NCBI GenBank assembly: GCA_045114745.1 | Contig: JBGULD010000005.1 | Location: 1,467-65,466, forward strand | Reading direction: 5' to 3' | From: Bacilli bacterium | Lineage (GTDB): Bacteria; Bacillota_I; Bacilli_A; RFN20; CAG-826 | DNA length: 64,000 nucleotides | Position numbers and translations under genes: made by a program | Notes under the pieces: generated by a model | What the model was told of the DNA's origin: nothing | The model's input: only the letters and a program-made list of their open reading frames with translations | The model's database searches: none | Shown here: piece by piece, positions 5,713-34,155 of the stretch | Position numbering within the stretch: the first letter of the stretch is position 1 | Layout of the letters: each line of letters opens with the position of its first letter

Positions 5713-7578
5713 CTAAATCTTCTTTTTAATGTTCAAAATAAGGATGGAAATATCAGCGGGATTAACACCAGAAATACGAGAGGCTTGTCCAATGGTTAAA
5801 GGTTGCACCTTGTTTAACTTACTTCTAGCTTCAAGTGCTAAACCATCCATATGTAAATAATCTATACCAGAAGGAATCTTCATTGCGTCTAGTTTAGCCA
5901 TACCTTCTGCTTCTTTGATTTGTTTGATGATATATCCCTCATATTTAGCGATCACTTCAATCTCCTCAACTGTGGACTCATCAAGTGAAAAACCTTCTAG
6001 TTCTTGGATAAATTTTGAAATTTCTGAATATTTTACATTTGGACGCTTCAATAATTCAAAAGCTTGAACGCCGCCCTTGAGTTCGTTAAAACCAAGGCTG
6101 GTGATGTAATCTTCTACTTCTTTTCTCTTACCTAAATAGACACTCTTTAAAATATCTGTGACGTTTTGAATGTCGGCTTTCTTCTTCAAAAATCTTTGAT
6201 ATCTATCTTCTTTGATTAAACCTACTTGATGTCCAATTTCAGTTAATCTTAAATCTGCGTTATCATGACGCAATAATAATCTAAATTCAGCACGAGATGA
6301 CATTAAACGATATGGTTCTAATGTGCCCTTGGTCACTAAGTCATCAATCATAACACCAATATAGGATTGGTCTCTTCTTAATATAAGCGGTTCTTTGCCT
6401 TCAATCTTCAAACAGGCATTTATGCCTGCCATTAAACCAAGACCAGCCGCTTCTTCATATCCAGAGGTACCACAAATCTGACCACCGATATATAAGCCCG
6501 GCCATTTTTTAAGTTCTAATGTTGGGCCATATTCTTCTGGAACGATTAAATCATATTCAATTGCATAGGCATATTTTAAGAAAACAGCATTTTCAAATCC
6601 TGGTAATGATCTCACCATTTCTTCTTGGACTTCTCTAGGCATAGATGTCGAGAAGCCTTGGACATAAATGGAATCTGTATAACGTGATTCTGGTTCTAAG
6701 AACAATTGGTGTCTTTCTTTATCCGCGAAATTAACAATCTTTGATTCAATAGAAGGACAATATCTTGGACCAACACCAGTAATCAAACCAGAATACATCG
6801 CTGAATCTTTTAAGTGTTCACGAATAATATCGTGCGTATGAGGAGTCGTATAAATTAAGTAACAAGGAATTTGTTCTTCAACTGGAATAAACTCATTTGT
6901 TTCATAAGAGAAGGCTAAACGGCCTTTTGTGCCCGGTTGAATGCTTCCCTTGGTAAAATCTATGGAGTCCGCTTTTATGCGCGGAGGCGTGCCTGTTTTA
7001 AACCTTGTTGTCTCAATTCCCATGCTTCTTAGATATGGAGATAATCCTAAAGAAGGTTTTTCACCATCTGGACCTTCATCTAAAACTTCATTACCGCGGA
7101 AGATTTTACTTTCCATATATGTTCCTGTTGTTAAGATTACTGCTTTAGCAGTATATTCTTGTCCATCTTCAGTCTTAACACCAAAAACATGTTTATCATC
7201 ATGAAGTAAGGAAACAACCATTCCTTCTTTCACAGTTAAATGTTCTGTATTTAAAGTGAGTTGTTGTAAATAATCTGGATATTCTAATTTATCTTGTTGC
7301 GCTCTTAGACATTGAACACCAGGACCTTTTCCAGTATTTAACATCTTCATTTGTAAATAATGGTGGTCGGCAGCTTTTCCCATCATGCCACCGAGAGCAT
7401 CGATTTCTCTAACAACAATACCTTTTGCGGATCCACCAATAGACGGATTACAAGGCATGTTACCCATTTTCTTGAAGTTGATGGTAAGCAAAAGTGTCTC
7501 ATGCCCCATGTGAGCACAAGCAAAAGCGGCTTCTAGACCGGCATGACCACCACCGACAACAATCACTTCGTAATCCAT
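5713..7578 (-). CDS. mnmG: tRNA uridine 5-carboxymethylaminomethyl modification enzyme MnmG (GidA)
   Basis: [20 protein letters not shown] provides the FAD motif. GPRYCPSIE and FLEPE motifs are present. Size is 621 aa. Confidence 0.95.
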   Translation of the reverse strand: MDYEVIVVGGGHAGLEAAFACAHMGHETLLLTINFKKMGNMPCNPSIGGSAKGIVVREIDALGGMMGKAADHHYLQMKMLNTGKGPGVQCLRAQQDKLEYPDYLQQLTLNTEHLTVKEGMVVSLLHDDKHVFGVKTEDGQEYTAKAVILTTGTYMESKIFRGNEVLDEGPDGEKPSLGLSPYLRSMGIETTRFKTGTPPRIKADSIDFTKGSIQPGTKGRLAFSYETNEFIPVEEQIPCYLIYTTPHTHDIIREHLKDSAMYSGLITGVGPRYCPSIESKIVNFADKERHQLFLEPESRYTDSIYVQGFSTSMPREVQEEMVRSLPGFENAVFLKYAYAIEYDLIVPEEYGPTLELKKWPGLYIGGQICGTSGYEEAAGLGLMAGINACLKIEGKEPLILRRDQSYIGVMIDDLVTKGTLEPYRLMSSRAEFRLLLRHDNADLRLTEIGHQVGLIKEDRYQRFLKKKADIQNVTDILKSVYLGKRKEVEDYITSLGFNELKGGVQAFELLKRPNVKYSEISKFIQELEGFSLDESTVEEIEVIAKYEGYIIKQIKEAEGMAKLDAMKIPSGIDYLHMDGLALEARSKLNKVQPLTIGQASRISGVNPADISILILNIKKKI

Positions 7579-8975
7579 TAACCAACACTACCTTCCATAT
7601 CCATCTTGATAAGTTGATTAAGTTCGACAGCATATTCCATTGGGAGTTCTCTTGAGAATGGTTCAATAAATCCCATGATAATCATTTGTGTCGCTTCTTT
7701 TTCATTAATACCACGACTCATTAAATAGAATAATTGTTCTTCACTAATCTTACTGACGGTCGCTTCATGTTCAATAAATGAAGTATTATTTCTCACTTCA
7801 TTTGTGGGGATTGTATTACTACGTGATAATTCATCCAAAATCAAAGTATCGCATTCAACGTGACTACGACAATTCTTCGCGCCTTCTTTATGTCTAACAG
7901 TGCCGCGGTAATTTGCGACACCACCATTTTTCACAATTGACTTAGAAATAATCGTGGATGTTGTATCATCCGCTTCATGGATCATTCTCGCACCAGCATC
8001 TTGATATTGATTCTTACCAGCAACAGCAATTGATATACATGTACCCTTAGCACCTCTACCTTTTAAAATACAAGCTGGATATTTCATATTTGTTTGGCTA
8101 CCGATATTACCATCAATCCATTCCATTTGGGCATCTTCATAACAAACCGCTCTCTTGGTTACGAGATTTACGATATTTGTGGACCAGTTTTGTACAGTTG
8201 AATAACGGCATTTACCACCTTTTAAGACAATGATTTCAACTACTGCAGCATGTAAGCTTTCTTTACTATATGTTGGTGCGGTACAACCTTCCACGTAATG
8301 GACATCAGCACCTTCATCGACAATGATTAAAGTTCTTTCAAATTGACCGGATTTTTCGTTATTAATTCTGAAATAACTCTGCAAAGGTTTATCCAAATGC
8401 ACATTTTTCGGAACATAAATGAAACTTCCGCCAGACCAAACTGCCCCGTTTAAAGCGGAAAATTTATTGTCAGCGATTGGTACCACTGTACCGAAATATT
8501 TCTTAAATAAATCTGGGTATAATTTGAGAGCCATATCTGTGGAAAGGAAGATCACGCCTTTATCAGATATCTCTTTTAACATGTTGTGATAAACAACTTC
8601 AGATTCATATTGAGTGGAAACACCAGAAAGATATTTTTGTTCGGCTTCAGGAATACCTAATTTAGTAAATGTATTCTTAATAGTCTCCGGAACTTCATCC
8701 CAACTTTGAACTTCTTTTTTACTTGGTCTAGTGAAATATGTATAAGAATCAAAATCTAAATAGGAAAGATCAGGTCCGAATTTGGGAAGAGGCATCGCTT
8801 TAAACGCTCTTAAAGCTTTGAGTCTAAACTCAAGCATCCATTCTGGCTCGTTTTTTAAACGAGAAATCTCTTTAACGATATCTTCATTAAGTCCGACATC
8901 AGTCTTTAAAATAGAGACATCTTCGTCTTTAAAACCGTATTTATAATCTTCTTGGAATTTAATATCGTCGACCAT
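7578..8975 (-). CDS. sufB: Fe-S cluster assembly scaffold protein SufB
   Basis: The 465-aa ORF is highly SufB-like ([47 protein letters not shown]). It is the last gene of the sufCDSUB arrangement. Confidence 0.95.
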
Positions 8976-24267: not shown

Positions 24268-24329
24268 ATTAATAAATTAGAGGTAATTCTTGTGTTTATC
24301 AAGAATAAACCAAAACATATTTTACAAAA

Positions 24330-24899
24330 TCAGTATTTATAGTTTTCGACATATTCAATAAATTCTTTAATGTTGGATTCTGATAGCGGTAAACATTTCA
24401 ACATTGTTATAACTTCATTGTATTTTAAAGCAAGCAGTTTCAGATATTGCGCTGGTTTATGATTTGAAACATCAATTTTAAAACCATGCTTTTTAAAAAC
24501 TTCATCCATATTTGGATAAAAATATATAGGAACAATATATCCACCCTTTCCCCACCAATAGGATGAGAAGATTTCTCCATTTTTATATTTTTCAAAAAGT
24601 TCGTCTGGAGTATCATCTTTATCCATGATAGAAAAGATTTTATGATCCAAAATTCCTTTTTTCTTATCAATCTTTAAGCAATCCTTAAATTTTGTTTTAT
24701 AATCCGCTATCGTGGGAAAATGCGCCGACAAATAATCGTTAATAGTATTAATAATAATCGAATTTCTTCCATTCTTTTCTGAAAGAGGATTCAACGACTT
24801 GTGAGTCTTTACTTGAATCTGTTTAACAAGTATTTGTTCGCATTCGCCGTGGCAAATGGTTGAACATGGATGATAATGTATCTTTCTATTTCTTTTCAT
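24330..24899 (-). CDS. TOPRIM/RloB-like small protein, partner of the upstream ATPase
   Basis: The 189-aa product is counted from the ATG at 24899; the tracked start at 24905 is TTG. STICHGECEQILV resembles the xCEGxxTE TOPRIM glutamate motif of RloB/DUF4435 proteins, and FSIMDKDDTPDE resembles their DxD motif. A Cys/His cluster HYHPCSTICHGEC is also present. The gene overlaps the 3' end of the ATPase gene. Confidence 0.45.
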   Translation of the reverse strand: MKRNRKIHYHPCSTICHGECEQILVKQIQVKTHKSLNPLSEKNGRNSIIINTINDYLSAHFPTIADYKTKFKDCLKIDKKKGILDHKIFSIMDKDDTPDELFEKYKNGEIFSSYWWGKGGYIVPIYFYPNMDEVFKKHGFKIDVSNHKPAQYLKLLALKYNEVITMLKCLPLSESNIKEFIEYVENYKY

Positions 24900-26214
24900 G
24901 TTCAATAATATCCACGATATATTTCATGGAGAAAAAACCTGTTTGAGGTACTCCTCCATATAGTCCCTTTAAATATTGACCAACCACATCGGTTCCACTT
25001 TGTATTTGTCTACCAAAAACATCCAAAGAATAAGAAACAACCTGATCATATTTTTCGTCTCTATCTAAAAGATAAATATATTTCTTATTAATATTTTTTA
25101 ATAATAAGGTATTGTGTGTAGTAACGATCAATTGTCCTTTAACATCGTTTCCTAAAGAATCAAAAATAGCCTTCAAGAGAATATCATTGATTCCGGAATC
25201 AATTTCATCAATCACAACAATGTTGTCGTTGGCAACGATTTCATAAAAAGTGGGGAACAATTCTAATAGTTTTTTTGTTCCGGTAGAAGCTAGACTATAA
25301 GGAACTCGAGATTCATTTTCACCACCGCCTTCCACGAAGACAAGATTATATGTTCTGCTATTATCGGAAGACACTTCAATATCATAATCCACCCTATTAA
25401 TGTTCGAATAAATAGAAGTAAAAAACATCGACAAGGCTGTCTTTGTATTTTCTAATTGTTGTTTCATAGAATCAAAATAATTACCGTATACCAAAATAGG
25501 TAACATATTTGAATCATATTTGAACATTACTGGGAAATTGGTTGTCTCTTTAAAAACATGCAACTTCTCTAACTCAAACATGAATGCTCTAATGGTTTTG
25601 GAAATATTTCTATTGCCATAAGTTCCATCAATTTCTCCATATACAGAATTGATGCACGCCAAAAGAGTGTGCTTGCCAGAATACATTTTGAATCTTTCAG
25701 AGATTAAACTCTTAAGTTCTTCAGAGAAGAAATGGGCATCACTCAAATCAGCATTTCCGTATCTATCCATGCCAAAACCTAAATCGCCATTAATAAATAA
25801 CTTTTCTTCCACAATAGAAGAACTATCAAAGGCAAGGCGATAATCAAATTTGTCATTGCCAACAAAGCATTCGTATTTGGCCCTCATATTATCTTTAGAA
25901 CCAATCTTTTTATAAATGCTTATATATTCAGGTGCACTATATAAAAAGTCATCGTTAACATAAAGTCTATTGATTTGATTTTGCAAATTAGATATTCCAT
26001 TTCCAAGAAACTGATTCGAGAATTTAGTACTAGCAATGGAGTTCTTTACTTTATTAAGTAATCTAAAAGCATCCACTACTGTTGATTTTCCAATAGCGTT
26101 TTCACCATAGATAACCGCAACATTCTTTGCACTTTTCTCGGCTTTGTTTTGATGCAAATCAAATTCAAAATGTTTGAAGGATTTAAAGTTGTCTAAAACA
26201 ATTTTACTAAACAT
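24886..26214 (-). CDS. ABC-type (AAA_21/AAA_15-like) ATPase of defence-island type
   Basis: Walker A is YGENAIGKST. ASTGTKKLLEL is signature-like, Walker B is VVIDEIDSGIND, and VTTHNTLLL is H-loop-like. There is no transmembrane or transport partner. An AAAGAGGA RBS is present. Confidence 0.75.
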   Translation of the reverse strand: MFSKIVLDNFKSFKHFEFDLHQNKAEKSAKNVAVIYGENAIGKSTVVDAFRLLNKVKNSIASTKFSNQFLGNGISNLQNQINRLYVNDDFLYSAPEYISIYKKIGSKDNMRAKYECFVGNDKFDYRLAFDSSSIVEEKLFINGDLGFGMDRYGNADLSDAHFFSEELKSLISERFKMYSGKHTLLACINSVYGEIDGTYGNRNISKTIRAFMFELEKLHVFKETTNFPVMFKYDSNMLPILVYGNYFDSMKQQLENTKTALSMFFTSIYSNINRVDYDIEVSSDNSRTYNLVFVEGGGENESRVPYSLASTGTKKLLELFPTFYEIVANDNIVVIDEIDSGINDILLKAIFDSLGNDVKGQLIVTTHNTLLLKNINKKYIYLLDRDEKYDQVVSYSLDVFGRQIQSGTDVVGQYLKGLYGGVPQTGFFSMKYIVDIIEHEKK

Positions 26215-26240
26215 GGCATGTTCCTCTTTTATGCATATTT

Positions 26241-26268
26241 AGTATATATTATTTCAGACAATTTACAA
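26241..26268 (-). promoter_or_regulatory. Candidate sigma-A promoter of the ATPase/TOPRIM-like pair
   Basis: The minus strand reads TTGTAA, a 16-nt spacer and TATACT, about 25 nt upstream of the ATG at 26214. Confidence 0.35.
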
Positions 26269-26551
26269 CAATATTTGCTGTTTTTTACTAAGTTTTTTAG
26301 CTTTTAATGTGTATATCGGTTAAACAAACAATATCATATTAAATGGCCGCATCATCAAAATTCTTGCAAAAGAAAGAAATAAAAAATGACTTTACATAAT
26401 TTATGTAAGTCACACATTATCTATTCTTGAACTTTGTTTTTTGATTATATTGATAAAATTGTTAACACTTTTTAGAATTAAAGTGTATCATAATAGTAGG
26501 CCCGAGGATATCTCGCGCGGTAAAAGAGGGAGCGTCTCCCCTTTTATTTTT

Positions 26552-27433
26552 TTATCTTTCCCATTTAGCAGGGAATTTGCGTAATCCCACCATCTTTCCG
26601 CTTCTATTACAAACAATCTTATTTTTGACTATTTCAAAATCTTTACCCTCTGTCCCAAATCGCATATAACGATAAATAGGATATGAACATAAATCAGCCA
26701 TTTCTATGCCAGGATATGCAAAAGCTCCGTCGTCAGATACTTTATGATTGAAAAACGCATCCACAAAATAGCGCTTTAGTACATTTTTCTTTGTGCTTTT
26801 ACAACCAGTTATATTTATTATCTTATAGATGTGTTTGTATAGTGATTTGTCTTCATTTTTGCCTCTAGATTCAAAAACAAGAGCTATTTTTTTATTTCGT
26901 TTAACATTCTTATATAAGCACTCAAGAATAATATCGAAAGCAACTTCGTAAGGATCGTATTTATAGTTTTGTTTGACATAAGAATACAAATCAAACGTCA
27001 CAGAAATAATTTTGCTTTTTATCATGCTTATAACGCTCGAAAGAGAATCTAAAAATTTATTGTATTTTTTCGCGGTTCCAAAATTAAATGGGCCCACTCT
27101 TTTGGCGATGTCTCTGTTGTGAAGAACAACTGGCGATTCCACCTTTTTAAAATACTGGTTTTTCAATTTTGCTATTAATTGCTTTGAAAATTCATACTCA
27201 CTCTTTGAAAATAAACAACAAGTTAAAGTGAAATATCTTCTGTTTTCATCTACTGGTTTGTTTGTAACAACGGATTTAAACATTTGTAAAATTGCGCTTG
27301 CGGAACCATTTTCATCAAAACAAGCAACATAGTCATATTTATTGTCAAAAGATGTAAATTCTTTTAGTGGTGTTTTGGATACAATTTCTTCCCAGTTTTT
27401 CATATCTAAAACTTTATCACAATAAAAGTACAC
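26552..27433 (-). CDS. DUF3800-like protein
   Basis: VACFDENGS resembles the N-terminal xxDESG motif. VVLHNRDI and GIEMADLCSYPIY resemble the central H..D and C-terminal ADL motifs of DUF3800. The start is uncertain: GTG at 27433 or ATG at 27403. The hairpin GGGAG-cgt-CTCCC at 26527-26541 lies just downstream. Confidence 0.55.
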   Translation of the reverse strand: MYFYCDKVLDMKNWEEIVSKTPLKEFTSFDNKYDYVACFDENGSASAILQMFKSVVTNKPVDENRRYFTLTCCLFSKSEYEFSKQLIAKLKNQYFKKVESPVVLHNRDIAKRVGPFNFGTAKKYNKFLDSLSSVISMIKSKIISVTFDLYSYVKQNYKYDPYEVAFDIILECLYKNVKRNKKIALVFESRGKNEDKSLYKHIYKIINITGCKSTKKNVLKRYFVDAFFNHKVSDDGAFAYPGIEMADLCSYPIYRYMRFGTEGKDFEIVKNKIVCNRSGKMVGLRKFPAKWER

Positions 27434-27472
27434 TATGACATAAAATAATAAAAATGCGTTGCAACAATCCTA

Positions 27473-27880
27473 CTAAGACAGCTTATTTGCAGCATCGAAA
27501 ATATCGTCAATAATACCATTTGGTAATTCGGTGAAGAAATAAAGCGTTCCTGCTTGGTTAGTAGGCATACTTCCGTTATGTGGATTTTTATCTAAAAAAC
27601 TTTTTTGTCTTTTATCATCATCTGATATTGAGTAATGTGAATAAAGTCTGATAGAACGCTTAAGTATATAAGGCTCAATTTTATAATTATCCAGATAGTT
27701 TCTTACTAAAAAGGCCGCTTTATCCATATCACATTGATAAAATCTACCAGCAACTTTCCCGTCTGGTGTTTTAAATTTATCAGCATTTAAGGCAACATCG
27801 ATAAAGGACTTACACAAAATATAAAACTCTTCATTTGAGAAATCCGATGGAACTTGTTTTAAAAAGTCTTCTTTTGTCAT
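27473..27880 (-). CDS. Hypothetical 135-aa protein (no recognisable family), upstream partner of the DUF3800-like gene
   Basis: The start is assigned to the ATG at 27880 (MTKEDFLKQV...), which has AAGGAG 7 nt upstream. The tracked start at 27931 is TTG and lies inside the repeat-module edge. A 39-nt gap separates it from the next gene. Confidence 0.55.
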   Translation of the reverse strand: MTKEDFLKQVPSDFSNEEFYILCKSFIDVALNADKFKTPDGKVAGRFYQCDMDKAAFLVRNYLDNYKIEPYILKRSIRLYSHYSISDDDKRQKSFLDKNPHNGSMPTNQAGTLYFFTELPNGIIDDIFDAANKLS

Positions 27881-27929
27881 GCACATTCTCCTTAAAAACA
27901 TTATACATTTTTGCTTTTGTCTTCTAAAC

Positions 27930-28120
27930 AACTTGCACTTCTTTCTTTTTTGATGGATTTATAGACACACAAGGAACAAGCACCACTATGAATAATAAAG
28001 ACAAGGTTATCTTTGATAAGAAACTCCCATACGAATATAACATCTGTCTTTATATCTTAGAAGAATTATGCGATAAGGGAATTATCAATGTTTTTGAGAT
28101 GACTGAAGCCATAATTCTTC
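27930..28120. repeat. Copy A of a roughly 190-bp duplicated divergent promoter/small-ORF module
   Basis: It aligns without indels to 31487..31677 and is roughly nine-tenths identical by eye. The alignment includes a perfect run TACGAATATAACATCTGTCTTTATATCTTAGAAGAATTATGCGATAAGGGAATTATC. Confidence 0.9.
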
Positions 28121-28152
28121 TAAGAAAGAAATACAAAAAATGCCTGTTATAA
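27988..28152 (+). CDS. Small conserved ORF (54 aa) inside repeat copy A
   Basis: Manual translation gives MNNKDKVIFDKKLPYEYNICLYILEELCDKGIINVFEMTEAIILLRKKYKKCLL. It is a paralogue of the N-terminal 42 aa of ORF 31545..31781. The nucleotide differences between copies keep the frame open. AAGGAA lies upstream. Confidence 0.4.
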   Translation: MNNKDKVIFDKKLPYEYNICLYILEELCDKGIINVFEMTEAIILLRKKYKKCLL

Positions 28153-28392
28153 GTATCTATGGTAAAAAAAGACAATAATTCCAGCGACTAAAAAGTAAGG
28201 AAAAGAACTAATAAAAGAAGCTGGTCCGAAACACAACCTAAAATCCACACTCACCTTTGGCGAGTGTTAGAACCTTCCATGTCTAATGCGAGCCATATGA
28301 TGTTTTTTGGTCTTACATATTATTTCATTTTTAACAAATATAATAATCAATTAAATGGATATTAGAGATCGTTTTTGTGGTACAAATAAAAA

Positions 28393-29511
28393 TTATTTGA
28401 TTTCAATAAATGAAATCTGCTTTTTTATTTTTAAGTTGGTGACAATTGTGTTTCTTTTTAGTTCAGGATATCTATATCTCTCATAAGCATTCAACAGTTT
28501 AGATACATTCATCTCAAGTTTTTGTAATTCTCTATTTTGTGTTTTTTTGTCGCCAAATCTTGAATAACAAATATATAAATTTATCTGCTTCGCCGTTTCT
28601 TTCCATTGGTGGCCATAGTTTTGCTTATAAAAGAAATCGCACATATCAAATAGTTCAAAGAAATATGGGTAATCTTGTTCCCCTAGTGAGTGCCCATAAA
28701 TAATTATTGCCTGAACGCCTTTCCTATCAAAATCATAACTGAAATCAACATCCAGTTTTCGCCATTCTTTGCTTAATTCAAAAATATCATTATCCTTTAT
28801 GCTTTGCCCTGTTGAATCATATCCTACGACAATTTTGGTATTGAGAGTTCCGTGAACATTCGCTTCACAACAGTATTTAGAAGAATCAATGGTGGTATAG
28901 TTAAAATCTATAATCTGTAATAAATAGTCTTTATTAACTGGACAGGCAGCGATAATTTTATCAACCATTTGTTCTTGAAGCTTTATATAATCGTTCTGCC
29001 TTCCAAGCCTTCTTTTAAGATATTTAATTAAGTCACTTTCAAGTTCATCCAAATCTTCAGATAAGATTTTCTTAATTGTTGAATAATCAAACTTTTGTCC
29101 GTCTTTTACCCTTCTATATAAAAGACCATCAATTCTTAATTGAATAGTATCTTTGATATTATAGTTGGAGCTTGGTAAATGGCTTTTATATATCTTTGAA
29201 ATCATTTCCTCTTCAGTTGCTATTTTCTTAACAAAACCTTCAACATCCATCCAGTTTGGATTTTTATAATCCACCGCTCTAAAAAATCCTGCATAATCGC
29301 GTTCTCTATAAAAACGCAATTTAAGTAATAAGTAAAGCAAATTATCACCATTGTATTGTTTTGACTTATCAAGCACACATTTTTCAAAGAAATTAGAAAA
29401 AGATGATTTTAACCCTAAGTGCATATCAAAACCATTCCCAAGCACTAAGACGTTGTGTGTTTTTGCAAACAAATCGATTACTTTATTTATTTTATTTTGA
29501 TCCATTTTCAT
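28393..29511 (-). CDS. AbiH-like abortive-infection family protein
   Basis: The N-terminus NVLVLGNGFDMHLGLKSSFSNFF matches the characteristic AbiH signature (GNGFD..hGl.tsY.dF). IIIYGHSLGEQDYPYF matches the C-terminal GHSL..D motif. Size is 372 aa. Confidence 0.7.
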   Translation of the reverse strand: MKMDQNKINKVIDLFAKTHNVLVLGNGFDMHLGLKSSFSNFFEKCVLDKSKQYNGDNLLYLLLKLRFYRERDYAGFFRAVDYKNPNWMDVEGFVKKIATEEEMISKIYKSHLPSSNYNIKDTIQLRIDGLLYRRVKDGQKFDYSTIKKILSEDLDELESDLIKYLKRRLGRQNDYIKLQEQMVDKIIAACPVNKDYLLQIIDFNYTTIDSSKYCCEANVHGTLNTKIVVGYDSTGQSIKDNDIFELSKEWRKLDVDFSYDFDRKGVQAIIIYGHSLGEQDYPYFFELFDMCDFFYKQNYGHQWKETAKQINLYICYSRFGDKKTQNRELQKLEMNVSKLLNAYERYRYPELKRNTIVTNLKIKKQISFIEIK

Positions 29512-29567
29512 GTTCTTTTGTTTTGTTTAAGTGATTGTGCTCCCAATAACAAAAAGCTTTGAATCAA

Positions 29568-29720
29568 TTATCTATCATCTTTTGGTTTTGGATTTGGGTT
29601 TGAGGGATATTTATCTGGATCGATGTTTTTGTGGCTATCGTGAATGGTAATGTTTTTATTATCAGAATTTGGGACACTATAGTTCTCTCTTATCGGTTTT
29701 TTTACTTTTGTATCAGGCAT
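29568..29720 (-). CDS. Possible 50-aa hydrophilic ORF translationally coupled to the upstream membrane-protein gene
   Basis: Manual translation gives MPDTKVKKPIRENYSVPNSDNKNITIHDSHKNIDPDKYPSNPNPKPKDDR. Its ATG at 29720 overlaps the upstream TGA (ATGCCTGA). The sequence is low complexity and has no homology support. Confidence 0.25.
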   Translation of the reverse strand: MPDTKVKKPIRENYSVPNSDNKNITIHDSHKNIDPDKYPSNPNPKPKDDR

Positions 29721-30309
29721 AATTAATTCCCTTCCTTTTCAAATAATATGCAGATTCTAAACTGCGATAATATTTTTGAACGACACTATTACGTGGATGC
29801 TTATTTAAAAACAATTTCATACAATATTTAGATGATAAATAAAACATATTCTTAAAAACTTTAATATAGTTATATAGTTTTTCTTTATCTTCTATTGTTA
29901 CCGAATCATTCAAATGTTTTTTTCTAAAATTCATATAATTGTTTTCTATTTTAAGAAATCTATATGCAAAACACTTTTTCTTTTCTTCTACATCATCACA
30001 CTTAATACAACCAAATTCTTCTAGATATTTATATCTATTGGCCACACCATAATAATATAGTCTATTAAAGCCAGTTAATAATTCTTCTTCAGTAGCAATT
30101 ATTCCTTTCATATCACGAAATGACCCACTATCAAGGATTTCATAGGCATCATTAATAAAAGACAATATCCCTTTTGTGTTATCAAAAAAGAAATCAATAT
30201 TGGCTTTATTATGTTGCCTAATTGCAAAATATAGCGAAATAAAAGCAATAACCATTGATATACAAGCAATAGATATTGAGATAATTGAAGTAACTACATC
30301 TGTTTGCAT
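29713..30309 (-). CDS. Hypothetical single-pass membrane protein (N-terminal TM helix + about 160-aa helical cytoplasmic domain)
   Basis: The TM helix is VVTSIISISIACISMVIAFISLYFAI, followed by a Lys/Tyr-rich soluble domain. I recognise no family. TATAAT lies 6 nt upstream of the ATG and there is no SD, so the transcript may be leaderless. Confidence 0.5.
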   Translation of the reverse strand: MQTDVVTSIISISIACISMVIAFISLYFAIRQHNKANIDFFFDNTKGILSFINDAYEILDSGSFRDMKGIIATEEELLTGFNRLYYYGVANRYKYLEEFGCIKCDDVEEKKKCFAYRFLKIENNYMNFRKKHLNDSVTIEDKEKLYNYIKVFKNMFYLSSKYCMKLFLNKHPRNSVVQKYYRSLESAYYLKRKGINYA

Positions 30310-30450
30310 ATAGTTATTATAAATCAGTAGAGCAAAGATGTCTTTAAAGTACTATTAAATCCATCATTAAATCATTTTAAAATTCATTGGTCCAAGCTAA
30401 TATCGCCGTCTTTTATCGACTATGCGATGTCAGAGCACCATTGTCGCTCT

Positions 30451-31458
30451 CTATTTTGATTCTTTCAATTCTTCTTTAAAATCTTTCACGGCTTTTTCTA
30501 GTTGCTTCGCATCACTTGAAAAAACATATTTATACGAGCAAGCCACACTATTTCTATTAGAAGCTTTTAATCCGGCATTAGAATAAACATTAAATTGTGT
30601 GCATTCACAATCTGTTCTTTCATAAAACTTTCTTTTGTCTGACATGATAAGCAAGAGTCTTTTAGATAGCGGAACCTCGACCACCATCCCGTATGTTGCA
30701 AGGGATGGAGGAAACATTGGCATTATTTCTTCTGTTGGACACAAGTTTAATAATTTATCAGTTAAGAACAGGGTTCCTCTATCAAAGAAAACAAATTGCC
30801 AAGTATAATTGAAGAAAATGTTCGTCATTTTATCAATAAGTTCTTTATTAATAATGGCGGAAATATGAAATAATCTTTTTTGTTCTTTTGTATAAGAGAT
30901 GGTTAAATTTTCCGGCTTAATATGGATGCCACCAAACTGTGCCATAATAGCCGTTGTTTGTTTAACCATTGAAACTCTCATTTCATCATAAAAATCTCTA
31001 ACATATTTTGTTTTGATGTGATGCAGTGCCAAAAGATGGGCAAACTTGGCCTTATTAACATCATCTAATAGAATTCTTTTTCCTTCTTTTGCATTTTTGA
31101 TTGTTTGTGATATTAATTCTCTGAATTCTGGTTCATATTGATTACTATACAAGTCATCAACAGCATATTCTAAATCTTCTTTTTCTTCCTTTGACATTTC
31201 AGATATCGGTTTAAATCCATCTTTTATAGAGGCTTCATCAATCTTTCTCTTTTCTTGATCATCTGAGCGATTATAAATATCTACTATTCCGAGATTGAAA
31301 AAATAGTTTTCTTCGCCAACATCTTGAATATCGCTCCAATAAAACTTATCAGTGTCTTTATTATAAACATACAATTTTTCATTCTTGGTGCAAAAATTCT
31401 TAAAATAGTGTTGAGATATATAGTGTTGCTTTTTGGCTCTGGTTTTTTTCCTTGACAT
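30451..31458 (-). CDS. DUF4238-like protein
   Basis: The N-terminus KKQHYISQHYFKNF matches the DUF4238 signature (HyvPqfyLrnF). Size is 335 aa. Confidence 0.6.
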   Translation of the reverse strand: MSRKKTRAKKQHYISQHYFKNFCTKNEKLYVYNKDTDKFYWSDIQDVGEENYFFNLGIVDIYNRSDDQEKRKIDEASIKDGFKPISEMSKEEKEDLEYAVDDLYSNQYEPEFRELISQTIKNAKEGKRILLDDVNKAKFAHLLALHHIKTKYVRDFYDEMRVSMVKQTTAIMAQFGGIHIKPENLTISYTKEQKRLFHISAIINKELIDKMTNIFFNYTWQFVFFDRGTLFLTDKLLNLCPTEEIMPMFPPSLATYGMVVEVPLSKRLLLIMSDKRKFYERTDCECTQFNVYSNAGLKASNRNSVACSYKYVFSSDAKQLEKAVKDFKEELKESK

Positions 31459-31486
31459 AAATTGTATCTTAATTTTACAACAAAAC

Positions 31487-31677
31487 TACTTGAACTTCTC
31501 GCTTTTTTGATGGATTTATAGACACATAAGGAACGGGCACCTCTATGCACAATAAAGGCAAGGTTATCTTTGATAAAAAACTCCTATACGAATATAACAT
31601 CTGTCTTTATATCTTAGAAGAATTATGCGATAAGGGAATTATCGATGCTTTTGAGATGACTGAAGCCTTAATCCCTC
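31487..31677. repeat. Copy B of the duplicated divergent promoter/small-ORF module
   Basis: It is collinear with 27930..28120. Weaker homology patches continue downstream (GGCGAGTGTT and GAGCCATnTnnTGTTTT in both copies). Confidence 0.9.
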
Positions 31678-31781
31678 GGCGAGTGTTTACCAAACAAAAA
31701 GACTCACATTTCAACATAATTGAAACACGAGCCATGTATTGTTTTAAAAGAAAAGAAAAGCGGAATCCCGCTATTTCTTGA
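31545..31781 (+). CDS. Small ORF (78 aa) inside repeat copy B, paralogue of 27988..28152
   Basis: MHNKGKVIFDKKLLYEYNICLYILEELCDKGIIDAFEMTEAL is conserved with copy A, and the C-terminus then diverges. Its 3' end runs through the terminator and stop codon of the convergent epimerase gene, so the true length is doubtful. Confidence 0.35.
   Translation: MHNKGKVIFDKKLLYEYNICLYILEELCDKGIIDAFEMTEALIPRRVFTKQKDSHFNIIETRAMYCFKRKEKRNPAIS
31741..31772 (-). terminator. Rho-independent terminator of the ugd-HEPN-epimerase transcription unit
   Basis: The minus strand reads GCGGGATTCCGC followed by TTTTCTTTTCTTTT, overlapping the TAG stop at 31771-31773. Confidence 0.7.
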
Positions 31782-32797
31782 TATAGAAACTATAATACCA
31801 TTCCGCAAAACGTCTTAATCCATCTCTAAGACTTGTGGATGGTTTATAACCAAAATCTCTTTCTAAATCACTTGTATCTGCATATGTAACAGGAACATCG
31901 CCTTTTTGCATTGGCGCCAATTTCTTGTGAGATTCGAAATCATAATCTTTAGGAAGTACATCCGCTTTAACGAGTTCTTCAGATAATATCTGTACGAAAT
32001 CTAATAGGTTTTCTGGATTATTATTACCAATGTTATAAATCTTATACGGAGGAATTGGTAAACCATCTTCTCCATCATGTTTCACTGGAGGTTTATCCAT
32101 CACTCTTATAACGCCTTCAACAATATCATCTACATAAGTGAAATCTCTTTTACAATTACCATAATTAAAGATTTCAATAGTTTCACCTTTAATTAACTTA
32201 TTAGTAAAACTAAAGTACGCCATATCTGGTCTTCCCATAGGACCATATACAGTAAAGAATCTTAATCCAGTTGTTGGGATGTTATATAACTTAGAATAAG
32301 CATGCGCTAGTAATTCATTAGACTTTTTGGTCGCAGCATATAAACTAACTGGATTATCTACTTTATCGTCTGTAGAAAATGGAACTTTAACATTGCCACC
32401 ATAAACGGATGATGAAGATGCATACACTAAGTGTTTAACTGGATGATATCTACATGCTTCTAATATGTTATAGAATCCAATAATATTTGATTGAATATAA
32501 ACATCAGGATGATCAATTGAATATCTAACACCCGCTTGAGCCGCTAAGTTGACAACAATATCAAAATAATATTCATTAAATAACTTATCTAAAAATGCTT
32601 TATCGGATATATCACCTTTAACAAATGTAAAGTTCTTAAAAGAAGATAACATTTTGAGTCTTTCATTTTTTTAAAGACACATCATAATAATCATTAAGGT
32701 TATCTAAACCAATAATGTCATAATCTGTGATTTCTAATAATTTTTTACATAGAAACGCACCTATAAATCCTGCAGCGCCTGTAATGAATATTTTCAT
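31771..32797 (-). pseudogene. UDP-glucuronate 4-epimerase-like NAD-dependent epimerase, interrupted by a frameshift in an A7 tract
   Basis: The ATG at 32797 gives [44 protein letters not shown] and then TGA. Removing one A from the A7 run (T7 on the plus strand, 32666-32672) restores ...[26 protein letters not shown]..., continuous with tracked ORF 31771..32652. That ORF carries YASSSSVYG and YAATK, the SDR catalytic motifs. Confidence 0.8.
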
Positions 32798-34149
32798 AAC
32801 GTATTCGAGGTTTGGTTTTTATCGTCTCCAGACAACTCTTCTGTTTTGAAATCACCAATGTGATTATTGACTATTTCATTGTAATAAATTGTATCTCGAA
32901 ATTGCAAAAATAATGGCCAGTTAATCAATTCGTTTGGTGTTTTGTCGGAGGAATATGATTGTTCAATTAATATGGCCGCATCTTTATAATTATCTAATAA
33001 AATTAGTTTAGCAATCTTGAACTGTATTTCAGCTGCACTAACATCAAATGTCGCAATTTCTTTATCAAAAGAATCATTTTGGCTTGAATATTTTAAAGAC
33101 AACAACAGATTAACCTTGGCAATCATTTTTGTAGCAAAATCAAGCTTTTTAGATGAAGAAAGAACCTTATAAACAAATGAAGTCAAAATATATTCTTTGT
33201 TGGCCAACTTTTCAAAATAATAATCCAGCAATTCATCAACATTGTTTTCAGAGGGTTTTTCTTTTTCCAACAGTTTAAAAACAATAAAAAACATTATTTT
33301 TTGAATATTAATAATATTTTCCGCAAAATACTCTTTGTCACACTTTAATGAAGTACCAATTTTGCACAATGATGATGGAATCGACTTCAAATACATTTGA
33401 TTCACAATTCCTTCGTTGTGAACAAATATGTTTCTTCTGTAGTATAATTCACAAAAGCGATCGAATAAATCTTTAATCTCTCCAAGGCATATTTTTTCTT
33501 TTTCGAAAATCTTTTTCGTGGTCTCAATCGAATCAAACATATCTGCTTCAACAATCTCATCAATTTGTTCATTTATAATTTCATCAACGTCCTTTCTAAT
33601 CAAGGATTGTAATGTTATTGTTTTTGAGCAGAAATATATGGATGGGTTATTGTGTATTAAAGCTGTATAGACGCACGAAAGAAATGACTCGTATGTGGAT
33701 ATCAAACTAGACAATATTGATTTTTGTAAACAAGAATACATATATCCATATTTTTTCATTATTCTTCTAGCAGTGGATGGCGAATATAGTTTTCGATCTT
33801 TAATTTCTTGATTAAAAACAAATTCAAATCCCATCTCTTTTTCGCTAAATGATAATTCTGAAAACAAATCAAAAAGCTTGTATTTTGAAGAAACGGGAGC
33901 ATTTTTAATCTCTTCCGCCCTTTCTTTTCTTTCTTTTTCGGTTTTGCATTTGTAAACAGAATTAAATAATGAAAGAATTTTGAAGGACGTTTCGTTGTTT
34001 TGTTTTTCTTTCGCAAAATTCTCTTTAATTGCTGCCAAATTAATTAAAAAATAGTCAAAGAGTTGTCCAATGTGCTCGGAAAAAGAAATGCAACAACTAA
34101 CTATTGCGTTTTTGAATTGTTCTTTGAAATCTTTATTGTCGTCTTTCAT
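32794..34149 (-). CDS. HEPN-motif protein (predicted RNase-type defence/toxin domain) with a large uncharacterised N-terminal region
   Basis: [14 protein letters not shown] contains the Rx4H HEPN catalytic motif (RNIFVH) in a helical context. The product is 451 aa from the ATG at 34149; the tracked start at 34155 is TTG. Its stop TGA overlaps the epimerase ATG (ATGA), and its start lies 7 nt after the ugd stop. Confidence 0.55.
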
Positions 34150-34155
34150 AAACAA

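Follow-up and report, generated by a model that had tools for sequence, protein, structure and literature searches.

Large serine integrases of phages and of integrative and conjugative elements (ICEs) are paired with small recombination directionality factors, as in TP901-1 Int and Orf7 or SPbeta SprA and SprB. Tandem defence cassettes driven by a large serine recombinase (LSR) have been described next to SCCmec, a staphylococcal cassette chromosome (SCC) element (PMC11470126). Small, Pin/Gin-like serine recombinases are used as markers of defence systems (PMC13552941), and sedentary chromosomal integrons carry defence cassettes (bioRxiv 10.1101/2024.07.02.601686). Here we analysed a 64,000-nt stretch of DNA from a Bacilli bacterium (assembly GCA_045114745.1, contig JBGULD010000005.1, positions 1,467 to 65,466), which we call the window. 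It contains two copies of a module, M, each at the head of a different set of anti-phage genes; in related genomes M runs into an LSR gene, and many copies are followed by one of two palindromes, G and P. On balance, we favour the reading that the window holds two tandem, decayed and independently acquired units of an SCC-like family of LSR-borne defence islands, in which cargo, small gene and LSR would be exchanged as a block and moved by the LSR, the recombinase being lost later.

M units resemble SCC and SCCmec with their CcrAB and CcrC recombinases (PMC11470126) in several respects. An LSR goes together with tandem cassettes rich in anti-phage genes; these adjoin a chromosomal gene at its 3' end, many of them have no recombinase of their own, and short conserved sequences in direct orientation lie at some of their junctions. 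However, the M-linked recombinase is not a Ccr protein: against NCBIfam it scored 64 bits for CcrB and 49 bits for CcrC, with cut-offs of 900, and it also fell far under the XisF cut-off. M units are found at polysaccharide loci (epimerase, glycosyltransferase and acyltransferase genes) instead of the 3' end of rlmH, a 66-amino-acid (aa) gene lies ahead of the recombinase gene and overlaps it, and the recombinase operon lies at the end of the unit, its relic heading each cassette. The junction elements of M units are palindromes of 38 bp and 65 bp, candidate att sites at most, and the mobility of the units is putative. Phage and ICE integrases share the LSR domain architecture and a protein of about 60 aa encoded beside the integrase. 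Yet the M-linked LSR is about 30-32% identical to phage LSRs, has no phage genes nearby, and its 66-aa partner has no detectable similarity to any family. A scan of IMG/VR for the small gene returned none, and as far as IMG/VR shows, M is not phage-borne.

A direct-repeat search of the window aligned 27926-28120 with 31483-31677 without gaps (195 nt, 91% identity, spacing 3557). This is the two-segment repeat claimed in an earlier note on this DNA, now extended by 4 nt to the left; the perfect run, given there as longer than 50 nt, measures 57 nt (28030-28086 and 31587-31643). Since all remaining direct repeats of the window are at most 44 nt long and at most 77% identical, the M repeat did not arise by chance. 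Both copies contain a plus-strand open reading frame (ORF), at 27988-28152 (54 aa) and 31545-31781 (78 aa), with 37 identities across the first 44 codons, and ORF and Pfam analysis agrees with the note that each copy is divergent from a different minus-strand cassette. Promoter-like -10 boxes of the cargo lie just outside the conserved block. The copies are located in the middle of an approximately 40-kb run of minus-strand polysaccharide-synthesis genes, with aminotransferases and an acetyltransferase to the left of the defence block and epimerase, UDP-glucose dehydrogenase and chain-length/kinase-like genes to the right. An Rfam search of window positions 20-40 kb at E<=1 found nothing for M or G, the sole match being a chance hit to Histone3.

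A profile built from the two window ORFs retrieved 174 protein clusters of 48-137 aa at 70-94% identity, the commonest of which has 66 aa (MHNKDKVIFDKKLPYEYNICLYILEELCDKGVIDVFEMTEAIILLRKKYKMPVISIYGKKDNNSSD). The matches differ in their tails, which translate the same downstream DNA in other frames or run on into junction elements. When intact, M consists of a 62-nt leader as 5' untranslated region and the gene of a 66-aa, two-helix protein, followed by an overlapping LSR gene. The LSR gene begins MVKKTIIPATKKLGKELIKEASPEHKLRVCAYVRVSTDSEEQ, and its start overlaps the last ~30 nt of the small gene in another frame. In the fetched loci L001, L003 and L008 (loci are cited by L numbers and proteins by P numbers), the module continues straight into a gene starting MVKKTIIPATKK...RVCAYVRVSTDSEEQ. 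An intact LSR of 548-561 aa follows the module in eight non-redundant loci. One of them, P0309, matched PF00239 Resolvase (E=1e-27, residues 30-177) with the serine-nucleophile motif AYVRVSTDSEEQ, PF07508 Recombinase (25.9 bits, cut-off 21.1) and, weakly, the PF13408 zinc ribbon (19.5 bits, under the cut-off of 25.3); its best PDB match was 3g13 (E=2e-28). Because of the Resolvase and Recombinase domains, the weak zinc ribbon and the length, the second gene of the operon encodes a large serine recombinase.

The operon recurs in many settings. The collection indexes P0295, a 66-aa protein of identical sequence, in 129 blocks, and the ten contexts listed for it have distinct neighbouring genes: varied defence genes on the left (AbiH, SIR2, ThsA-Macro, DUF2971 and others) and varied polysaccharide genes on the right. 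The LSR is intact in seven of these ten contexts and fragmentary in three, so the idea that the recombinase is nearly always decayed was rejected. Relics of internal deletion are nevertheless common: recombinase fragments are also retained in L013 and L019, and L018 keeps the last ~40 nt of the LSR gene beside the epimerase. In L001, L047, L066 and L068 the LSR stop codon is only 2-8 nt from that of the neighbouring gene, which varies by locus (epimerase, GT4, acyltransferase or NTP-transferase). No conserved att-like sequence was found past the LSR stop across the compared loci. As separate observations, a tandem pair of additional LSR genes (563 and 546 aa) occupies the far end of an island in L067 (1-2211), the near end of which has the module with its own LSR, and ORF P0121 (411 aa) in L049 (1793-3028) is an in-frame fusion in which the N-terminal recombinase half is followed by the C-terminal half of a group-1 glycosyltransferase.

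The earlier note had read M as a promoter/small-ORF module, either a control unit or a recombination scar. The link to recombination holds, but a free-standing promoter or operator unit does not: M is the 5' end of a two-gene operon, of which both window copies are truncated relics. Its small ORFs of 54 and 78 aa do exist, but as frameshifted and truncated copies of one 66-aa gene. The module features of the window are as follows.

27926..28241, plus strand: module copy A at its full extent, with the 62-nt 5' leader, the small gene and the first 26 recombinase codons.
27988..28190, plus strand: small-protein gene of copy A; open frame of 54 aa (27988-28152), with the 66-aa consensus aligning at 82% identity over 27988-28188 (tblastn).
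28045..28135, plus strand: inverted repeat in the small gene of copy A; 26-nt arms at 28045-28070 and 28110-28135, 39 nt apart.
28166..28243, plus strand: large-serine-recombinase remnant, codons 3-28; 81% aa identity over residues 3-28 (tblastn), in alignment with L001, L005, L025 and L040.
28259..28300, plus strand: shortened G element, GGCGAGTGTT, 19 nt, GCGAGCCAT; exact match to both arms, below the nhmmer threshold for full-length G.
31483..31677, plus strand: module copy B; leader and small-gene codons 1 to ~45, ending at M position 196.
31545..31781, plus strand: 78-aa ORF of copy B, in which family homology covers the first 44-46 codons only.
31675..31738, plus strand: G element by copy B, TCGGCGAGTGTTT, 38 nt, AAACACGAGCCAT; nhmmer E=3e-14.

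Copy A is 88-94% identical to the modules of L001, L008, L003, L005, L050, L061 and L063 by blastn and corresponds to M positions 2-261 by nhmmer; family homology reaches 28241, past the repeat end reported at 28120. Compared with the 66-aa consensus, its small gene has two additional A residues at ~28134-28139 and one at ~28164-28170, which lead to a premature TAA. The recombinase remnant, with 26 codons kept, overlaps the end of the small gene in a different frame. In the 78-aa ORF of copy B, the tail arises from reading on through G and the epimerase terminator, and the same tail occurs in P0001-P0011 (P0001, the window's own ORF, gave no record on look-up). G is fused to the truncated copy B, 33 nt from the epimerase stop codon, and this junction of M position 196 with G recurs in L022, L024, L025 and L043. 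The shortened G lies between the recombinase remnant of copy A and the AbiH 3' end, 140 nt further along than in copy B. The weaker homology patches noticed 3' of both copies are real, being parts of the recurrent, ~65-bp palindromic element G. Differences between copies A and B are mostly non-synonymous, which fits relaxed constraint on relics. Judged from these frames, neither unit retains a working recombinase, and probably neither retains a working small protein.

A peptide-pattern search found M in 19 species-representative genomes, all of them metagenome-assembled genomes (MAGs), mostly ruminant. They are labelled Bacilli, Bacillales, 'Erysipelotrichaceae' or Staphylococcaceae, and one M member is labelled Candidatus Izemoplasmatales. 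With nhmmer, we identified 60 non-redundant copies in 70 fetched loci of rumen/gut Bacilli or Izemoplasmatales-like MAGs; an exact scan of genome contigs with the 57-mer gave no match, most copies differing at one codon. The left boundary was the same in 55 of the 60 copies, the right ends varied from module position 88 to 261, and the flanking genes were all on the opposite strand. To the left, the cargo comprised AbiH, AbiEii, SAVED+AGS_C (CBASS), SIR2_2, TIR_2, Fic, RelA_SpoT, ThsA_Macro (Thoeris-like), HEPN, YobI and SLFN genes, and M with its cargo sits within or beside a polysaccharide locus. The recurrence next to variable cargo that the note had proposed to check by BLAST is thus seen in both the protein clusters and the DNA copies, and the case it had named against itself, a local duplication with no varied cargo elsewhere, is not what we found. 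Copy A is 95.4% identical to the L008 copy and copy B 93.1% to the L024 copy, versus 90.7% between A and B. Because each is closer to a copy in another genome than to its partner, A and B are separate acquisitions.

Comparison of loci suggested what is exchanged. L056 has the same DUF4238 gene as the window, the same intergenic region and a complete M running into the recombinase (85% identical to window 30461-31672), with different genes downstream of DUF4238; it represents the precursor state of the head of cassette B. The left flank of copy B resembles L056. Since its right end (module ~185-196 plus G) belongs to the L022/L024/L043 lineage, copy B is a mosaic. Between L063 and L065, identity is 99-100% over a stretch that begins ~120 nt ahead of the LSR stop codon and extends to the right across 3 kb of polysaccharide genes; over M and the LSR it is only 90-95%, and further left the cargo is unrelated. 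In this pair, cargo, module and most of the LSR were exchanged as a block. In L025, up to four modules, 84-94% identical, are interleaved with cassettes in ~12 kb. Together with the 26 recombinase codons of copy A, the L056 precursor, the L063/L065 exchange and the L025 array support the SCC-like reading.

We therefore propose the following scheme. An intact unit comprises the plus-strand leader, 66-aa gene and overlapping LSR, back to back with a minus-strand anti-phage block, and the 3' end of its operon abuts the 3' end of a cell-surface polysaccharide gene. Such units of defence cargo, small gene and LSR would be swapped as blocks and mobilized by the LSR, as SCC cassettes are by Ccr recombinases in staphylococci, and repeated integration would pile them up in tandem. 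Deletions would then remove the recombinase gene. The leader and the front of the small gene would survive because deletions reaching further left would take the promoter and start codon of the cargo, rightward ones only the recombinase; the asymmetry between intact left ends and the many truncated right ends thus needs no function for the relic. In the window, unit B (DUF4238, 198-aa protein, 50-aa ORF, AbiH), headed by copy B, adjoins the epimerase gene, and unit A (135-aa orphan, DUF3800), headed by copy A, adjoins unit B.

The junction palindromes bear on this scheme. Directly after the module and on the same strand, 23 of the 60 copies have a palindrome, G in 11 cases and P in 12. G has the consensus TCGGCGAGTGTTT, N30-40, AAACACGAGCCATRT (~65 bp); its imperfect inverted arms measure ~11 bp in the window copy and 14 bp where the stem is longer (L003, L012). 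P, which is absent from the window, has the consensus AAAGCGGTTACCnGGGAA, N5, TTCCnGGGTAACGC (38 bp) and was found in L002 (16626), L004 (10191), L007 (10201), L010 (10134), L011 (8203), L014 (10105) and L067 (4203), with three copies in L025, two in L029 and two in L017 (10074 and 18292), the last pair flanking an 8.2-kb block of defence genes. The left edges of both elements are exact: truncated modules end precisely there and never resume on the far side. G also interrupts acetyltransferase genes, and it sits 13-35 nt past the stop codon of the right-hand gene, ordinary polysaccharide genes included. Scored on the minus strand, G resembles a terminator hairpin, and the P hairpin is stable (z = -4.5). 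Both elements are in direct orientation, at the module junctions as well as between cassettes, and within the fetched loci they are confined to these islands. They are absent at intact-LSR loci and at some shared cassette edges; among loci with an intact or partial LSR we saw no P and almost never G, the sole exception being one G beside a divergent second module in L003. We rejected dispersed palindromes of the miniature inverted-repeat transposable element (MITE) or repetitive extragenic palindromic (REP) type, there being no junction at which the module resumes after G or P. The attC assignment was likewise rejected, by inspection, as neither the arms of G (GGCGAGTGTTTG / CAAACACGAGCC) nor those of P (GCGGTTACC / GGGTAACGC) match RYYYAAC ... 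GTTRRRY. The cuts at G and P may come from recombinase action on a true site and pseudo-sites, from replication slippage at a stalling palindrome, or from one-ended insertion.

Several observations weigh against the SCC-like reading. G cuts the operon at six or more different positions and P at seven or more, always precisely at their left edges, which is not a prediction of simple random decay. The L063/L065 identity step falls inside a conserved stretch of the LSR, and it may reflect a homologous crossover instead of a site-specific one. Some shared cassettes are bordered on neither side by a module, G or P; window 24332-26331 and L063 3842-5842 (89%) are an example. No att site was found, with no conserved sequence past the LSR stop and a varying right neighbour, and neither an excision product nor an empty site was seen. 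Exchange between homology arms would yield many of the same patterns.

Such passive exchange is the alternative that survives best, although we consider it rather unlikely. It would take M, with or without the LSR, as a conserved stretch between a hypervariable defence island and a polysaccharide locus, where swaps occur by homologous recombination after DNA uptake, the recombinase is uninvolved and G and P are terminators. M is indeed more conserved between genomes (88-95% nucleotide identity) than neighbouring core genes (79-83%); the mosaic nature of copy B, with its L056-like left flank and L022/L024-like right end, the position of the L063/L065 step and the hairpins of G and P all agree with it. 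However, passive exchange leaves unexplained why a recombinase operon stands at the same spot in so many species, why the edges of G and P are exact at many operon positions, why one identical 66-aa protein occurs in so many blocks with distinct neighbours, and why arrays of four diverged modules exist.

A more doubtful alternative is an integron-like platform, in which a resident module-LSR operon captures cassettes at an upstream, attI-like boundary, and G and P act as attC-like sites for excision and shuffling. The operon, its upstream boundary and the palindromes would then form a serine-recombinase cassette system, an integron analogue in wall-less or low-GC Bacilli that takes up, expresses and shuffles anti-phage operons next to the locus for surface polysaccharide, with the 66-aa protein as accessory or directionality factor; we hold this version to be equally doubtful. 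As in sedentary chromosomal integrons (bioRxiv 10.1101/2024.07.02.601686), the recombinase operon points away from an array of co-oriented cassettes with anti-phage cargo, and imperfect palindromes lie at the 3' ends of cassettes. The sharp boundary at which variable DNA begins in 55 of 60 copies, the constant orientation of G and P between cassettes at 13-35 nt past stop codons, and their exact left edges also speak for a platform. So do arrangements of G, cargo and G without the module in L012, L022 and L045, and a differing cassette order: the AbiE pair (~76-81% identity) and an 887-aa AEP-TOTE helicase cassette (96%) are in opposite order in L050 and L017. But the only recombinase present is a serine recombinase and not the tyrosine recombinase IntI, G and P misfit the attC core motifs and have no R''/L''/L'/R' box pattern, and arrays contain the head module more than once, whereas attI would be single. 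Moreover, the LSR varies together with the cargo between L063 and L065 and so behaves as part of the cargo block, not as a fixed platform. G and P are almost never found where the LSR is intact or partial (L003 excepted), some shared cassettes have no G and P at both edges, and the cassettes are multi-gene operons with promoter-like -10 boxes beside the cargo at several module boundaries.

A further alternative depends on the 66-aa protein itself. Over codons 2-44 of 27 non-redundant copies, nucleotide diversity was 0.084, 0.047 and 0.201 at the three codon positions. Because of this third-position excess, the small gene is under purifying selection over codons 2-44, and a mere conserved DNA element was rejected for that part. 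Codons 45-66, which partly overlap the recombinase start, showed no such excess in the same 27 copies. An exhaustive profile search of 1.84 billion protein representatives recovered only 61 relatives (39-126 aa). Members at 35-45% identity retain the pattern xYN(I/L)...L.E....G(I/L)ID(I/V)F(E/D)..EA...LRK.Y.LP(V/I). No match was found in Pfam, PHROGs, NCBIfam or PADLOC, and Foldseek against the PDB gave nothing significant (best E 1.4), in agreement with the note's remark that the small protein has no nameable family. AlphaFold2 predicted a helical hairpin (residues 15-29 and 35-48; mean pLDDT 74, core >90) instead of the helix-turn-helix or winged-helix fold that the note had suggested looking for, again with no DNA-binding match. 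We infer that the protein is a recombination accessory or directionality factor.

The inverted repeat within the small gene was considered separately. Its 26-nt arms, which code for the two predicted helices, are 88% complementary (23/26) and also occur in L050 (9889-9979). The RNA fold has -27.5 kcal/mol (z = -5.1). The columns are nearly invariant across the aligned copies, among which there is no covariation, and the repeat is absent from divergent paralogues of ~50% identity.

The earlier note had mainly regarded M as a control head whose small protein regulates the divergent cargo promoter and which is therefore kept at each cassette. The purifying selection, the divergent orientation with back-to-back promoter-like elements at the boundary, and the preferential retention of the left part of the module can be counted for it. 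However, the small gene overlaps the recombinase gene and is apparently co-transcribed with it, the predicted hairpin lacks any DNA-binding match, about half of the copies are truncated or frameshifted, both window copies included, and adjacency to the cargo start accounts for the left-part retention. A control function of this kind thus seems very improbable. A simple local tandem duplication within this genome, suggested by two direct copies 3.5 kb apart, was rejected as practically untenable, each copy being nearer to those of other genomes, with unrelated flanks, differing truncation states and a widespread family.

Returning to the SCC-like reading, the window carries the following cargo and neighbouring genes.

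24330..26331, minus strand: third defence unit, without module; AbiLi-like AAA_21 ATPase (24886-26214), 191-aa partner (24330-24905), and 117 nt upstream.
26552..27931, minus strand: cargo A; 135/152-aa orphan (27473-27931) and DUF3800 protein (26552-27433, Pfam E=1e-8).
28393..31458, minus strand: cargo B; DUF4238, 198-aa protein, 50-aa ORF and AbiH.
28393-29511, minus strand: AbiH gene of cargo B (Pfam E=1e-18; PADLOC AbiH match).
29568-29720, minus strand: 50-aa ORF of cargo B.
29713-30309, minus strand: 198-aa protein gene of cargo B.
30451-31458, minus strand: DUF4238 gene of cargo B (Pfam E=1e-20); an 89%-identical homologue adjoins M in L056.
31771..32797, minus strand: NAD-dependent sugar epimerase, frameshifted; a polysaccharide-locus gene whose 3' end abuts the module.

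The orphan of cargo A had no PADLOC, PHROG, NCBIfam or Pfam match. The ATPase of the third unit matched PADLOC AbiLi (E=2e-41), and its 2.0-kb block is the one shared with L063 (3842-5842), where it stands in another context beside housekeeping genes. The window's other cassette edges (24268-24329, 26215-26551) have neither G nor P. The epimerase occupies the same place beside the module in L001, L017, L018, L047 and L066. In the window a 1-nt indel following a run of A at ~32655-32665 breaks it in two (...SLKK* / MLSSFKNF...), while it is intact in L001, L017 and L018; either the window gene is a pseudogene or the assembly is wrong in the homopolymer. Between epimerase and UDP-glucose dehydrogenase, which are directly adjacent in L017, L018 and L061, the window has a 453-aa orphan gene (32794-34155, minus strand) with no Pfam, PADLOC, PHROG or NCBIfam match; it resembles a further gene insertion that lacks a module. 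In L064 (878-3805, 9940-10199) epimerase and UDP-glucose dehydrogenase lie between two module copies, and polysaccharide genes can thus fill the cargo position as well.

Two kinds of additional sequence were noticed around the modules. Upstream of the module in L050 (9471-9770) there is ~300 bp of extra conserved non-coding DNA that includes repeated TGCAT motifs together with a 15-bp inverted repeat (AATCAGTTTGCATAT / ATATGCAAACTGTTT). The stretch also occurs in L001, L002, L004, L015, L017, L022, L025, L065, L066 and L070, frequently with another, incomplete copy of the module (positions 2-105) ahead of it. The motif GTCTTTAACGTACTGTA(A/G)TAATCC...AAATTATTCCGACTG recurs in L050 (1735-1800, 9395-9470), L008 (~8250-8330), L044 (~5760-5830) and L056. 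The L044 copy precedes a plus-strand 429-aa gene, and L049 has an IS30-like (HTH_38) gene. From its appearance, the motif could represent solo insertion sequence (IS) ends inside the islands.

The 66-aa protein family and the palindromes G and P are undescribed components. Like the small serine recombinases used as defence markers (PMC13552941), the M-linked recombinase gene is connected to diverse defence genes and is a possible bait for defence-gene discovery; here, however, a large serine recombinase is combined with a partner small gene, and the commonest marker is the 5' relic of the operon and not the recombinase. The 66-aa gene with its leader, with or without the LSR, is thus an undescribed and abundant marker of hypervariable anti-phage arrays in uncultured rumen and gut Bacilli. 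It is usable as bait for new defence genes in bacteria for which genetic tools are lacking and in which much of the cargo belongs to no family, such as the 135-, 198- and 453-aa proteins of the window. The location of defence arrays in or beside a surface-polysaccharide locus places two phage-facing traits together. If the palindromes are recombination sites, they would represent a mechanism of cassette capture without a tyrosine recombinase; and if the LSR moves the units, the family would add a non-staphylococcal lineage to the LSR-driven tandem defence cassettes.

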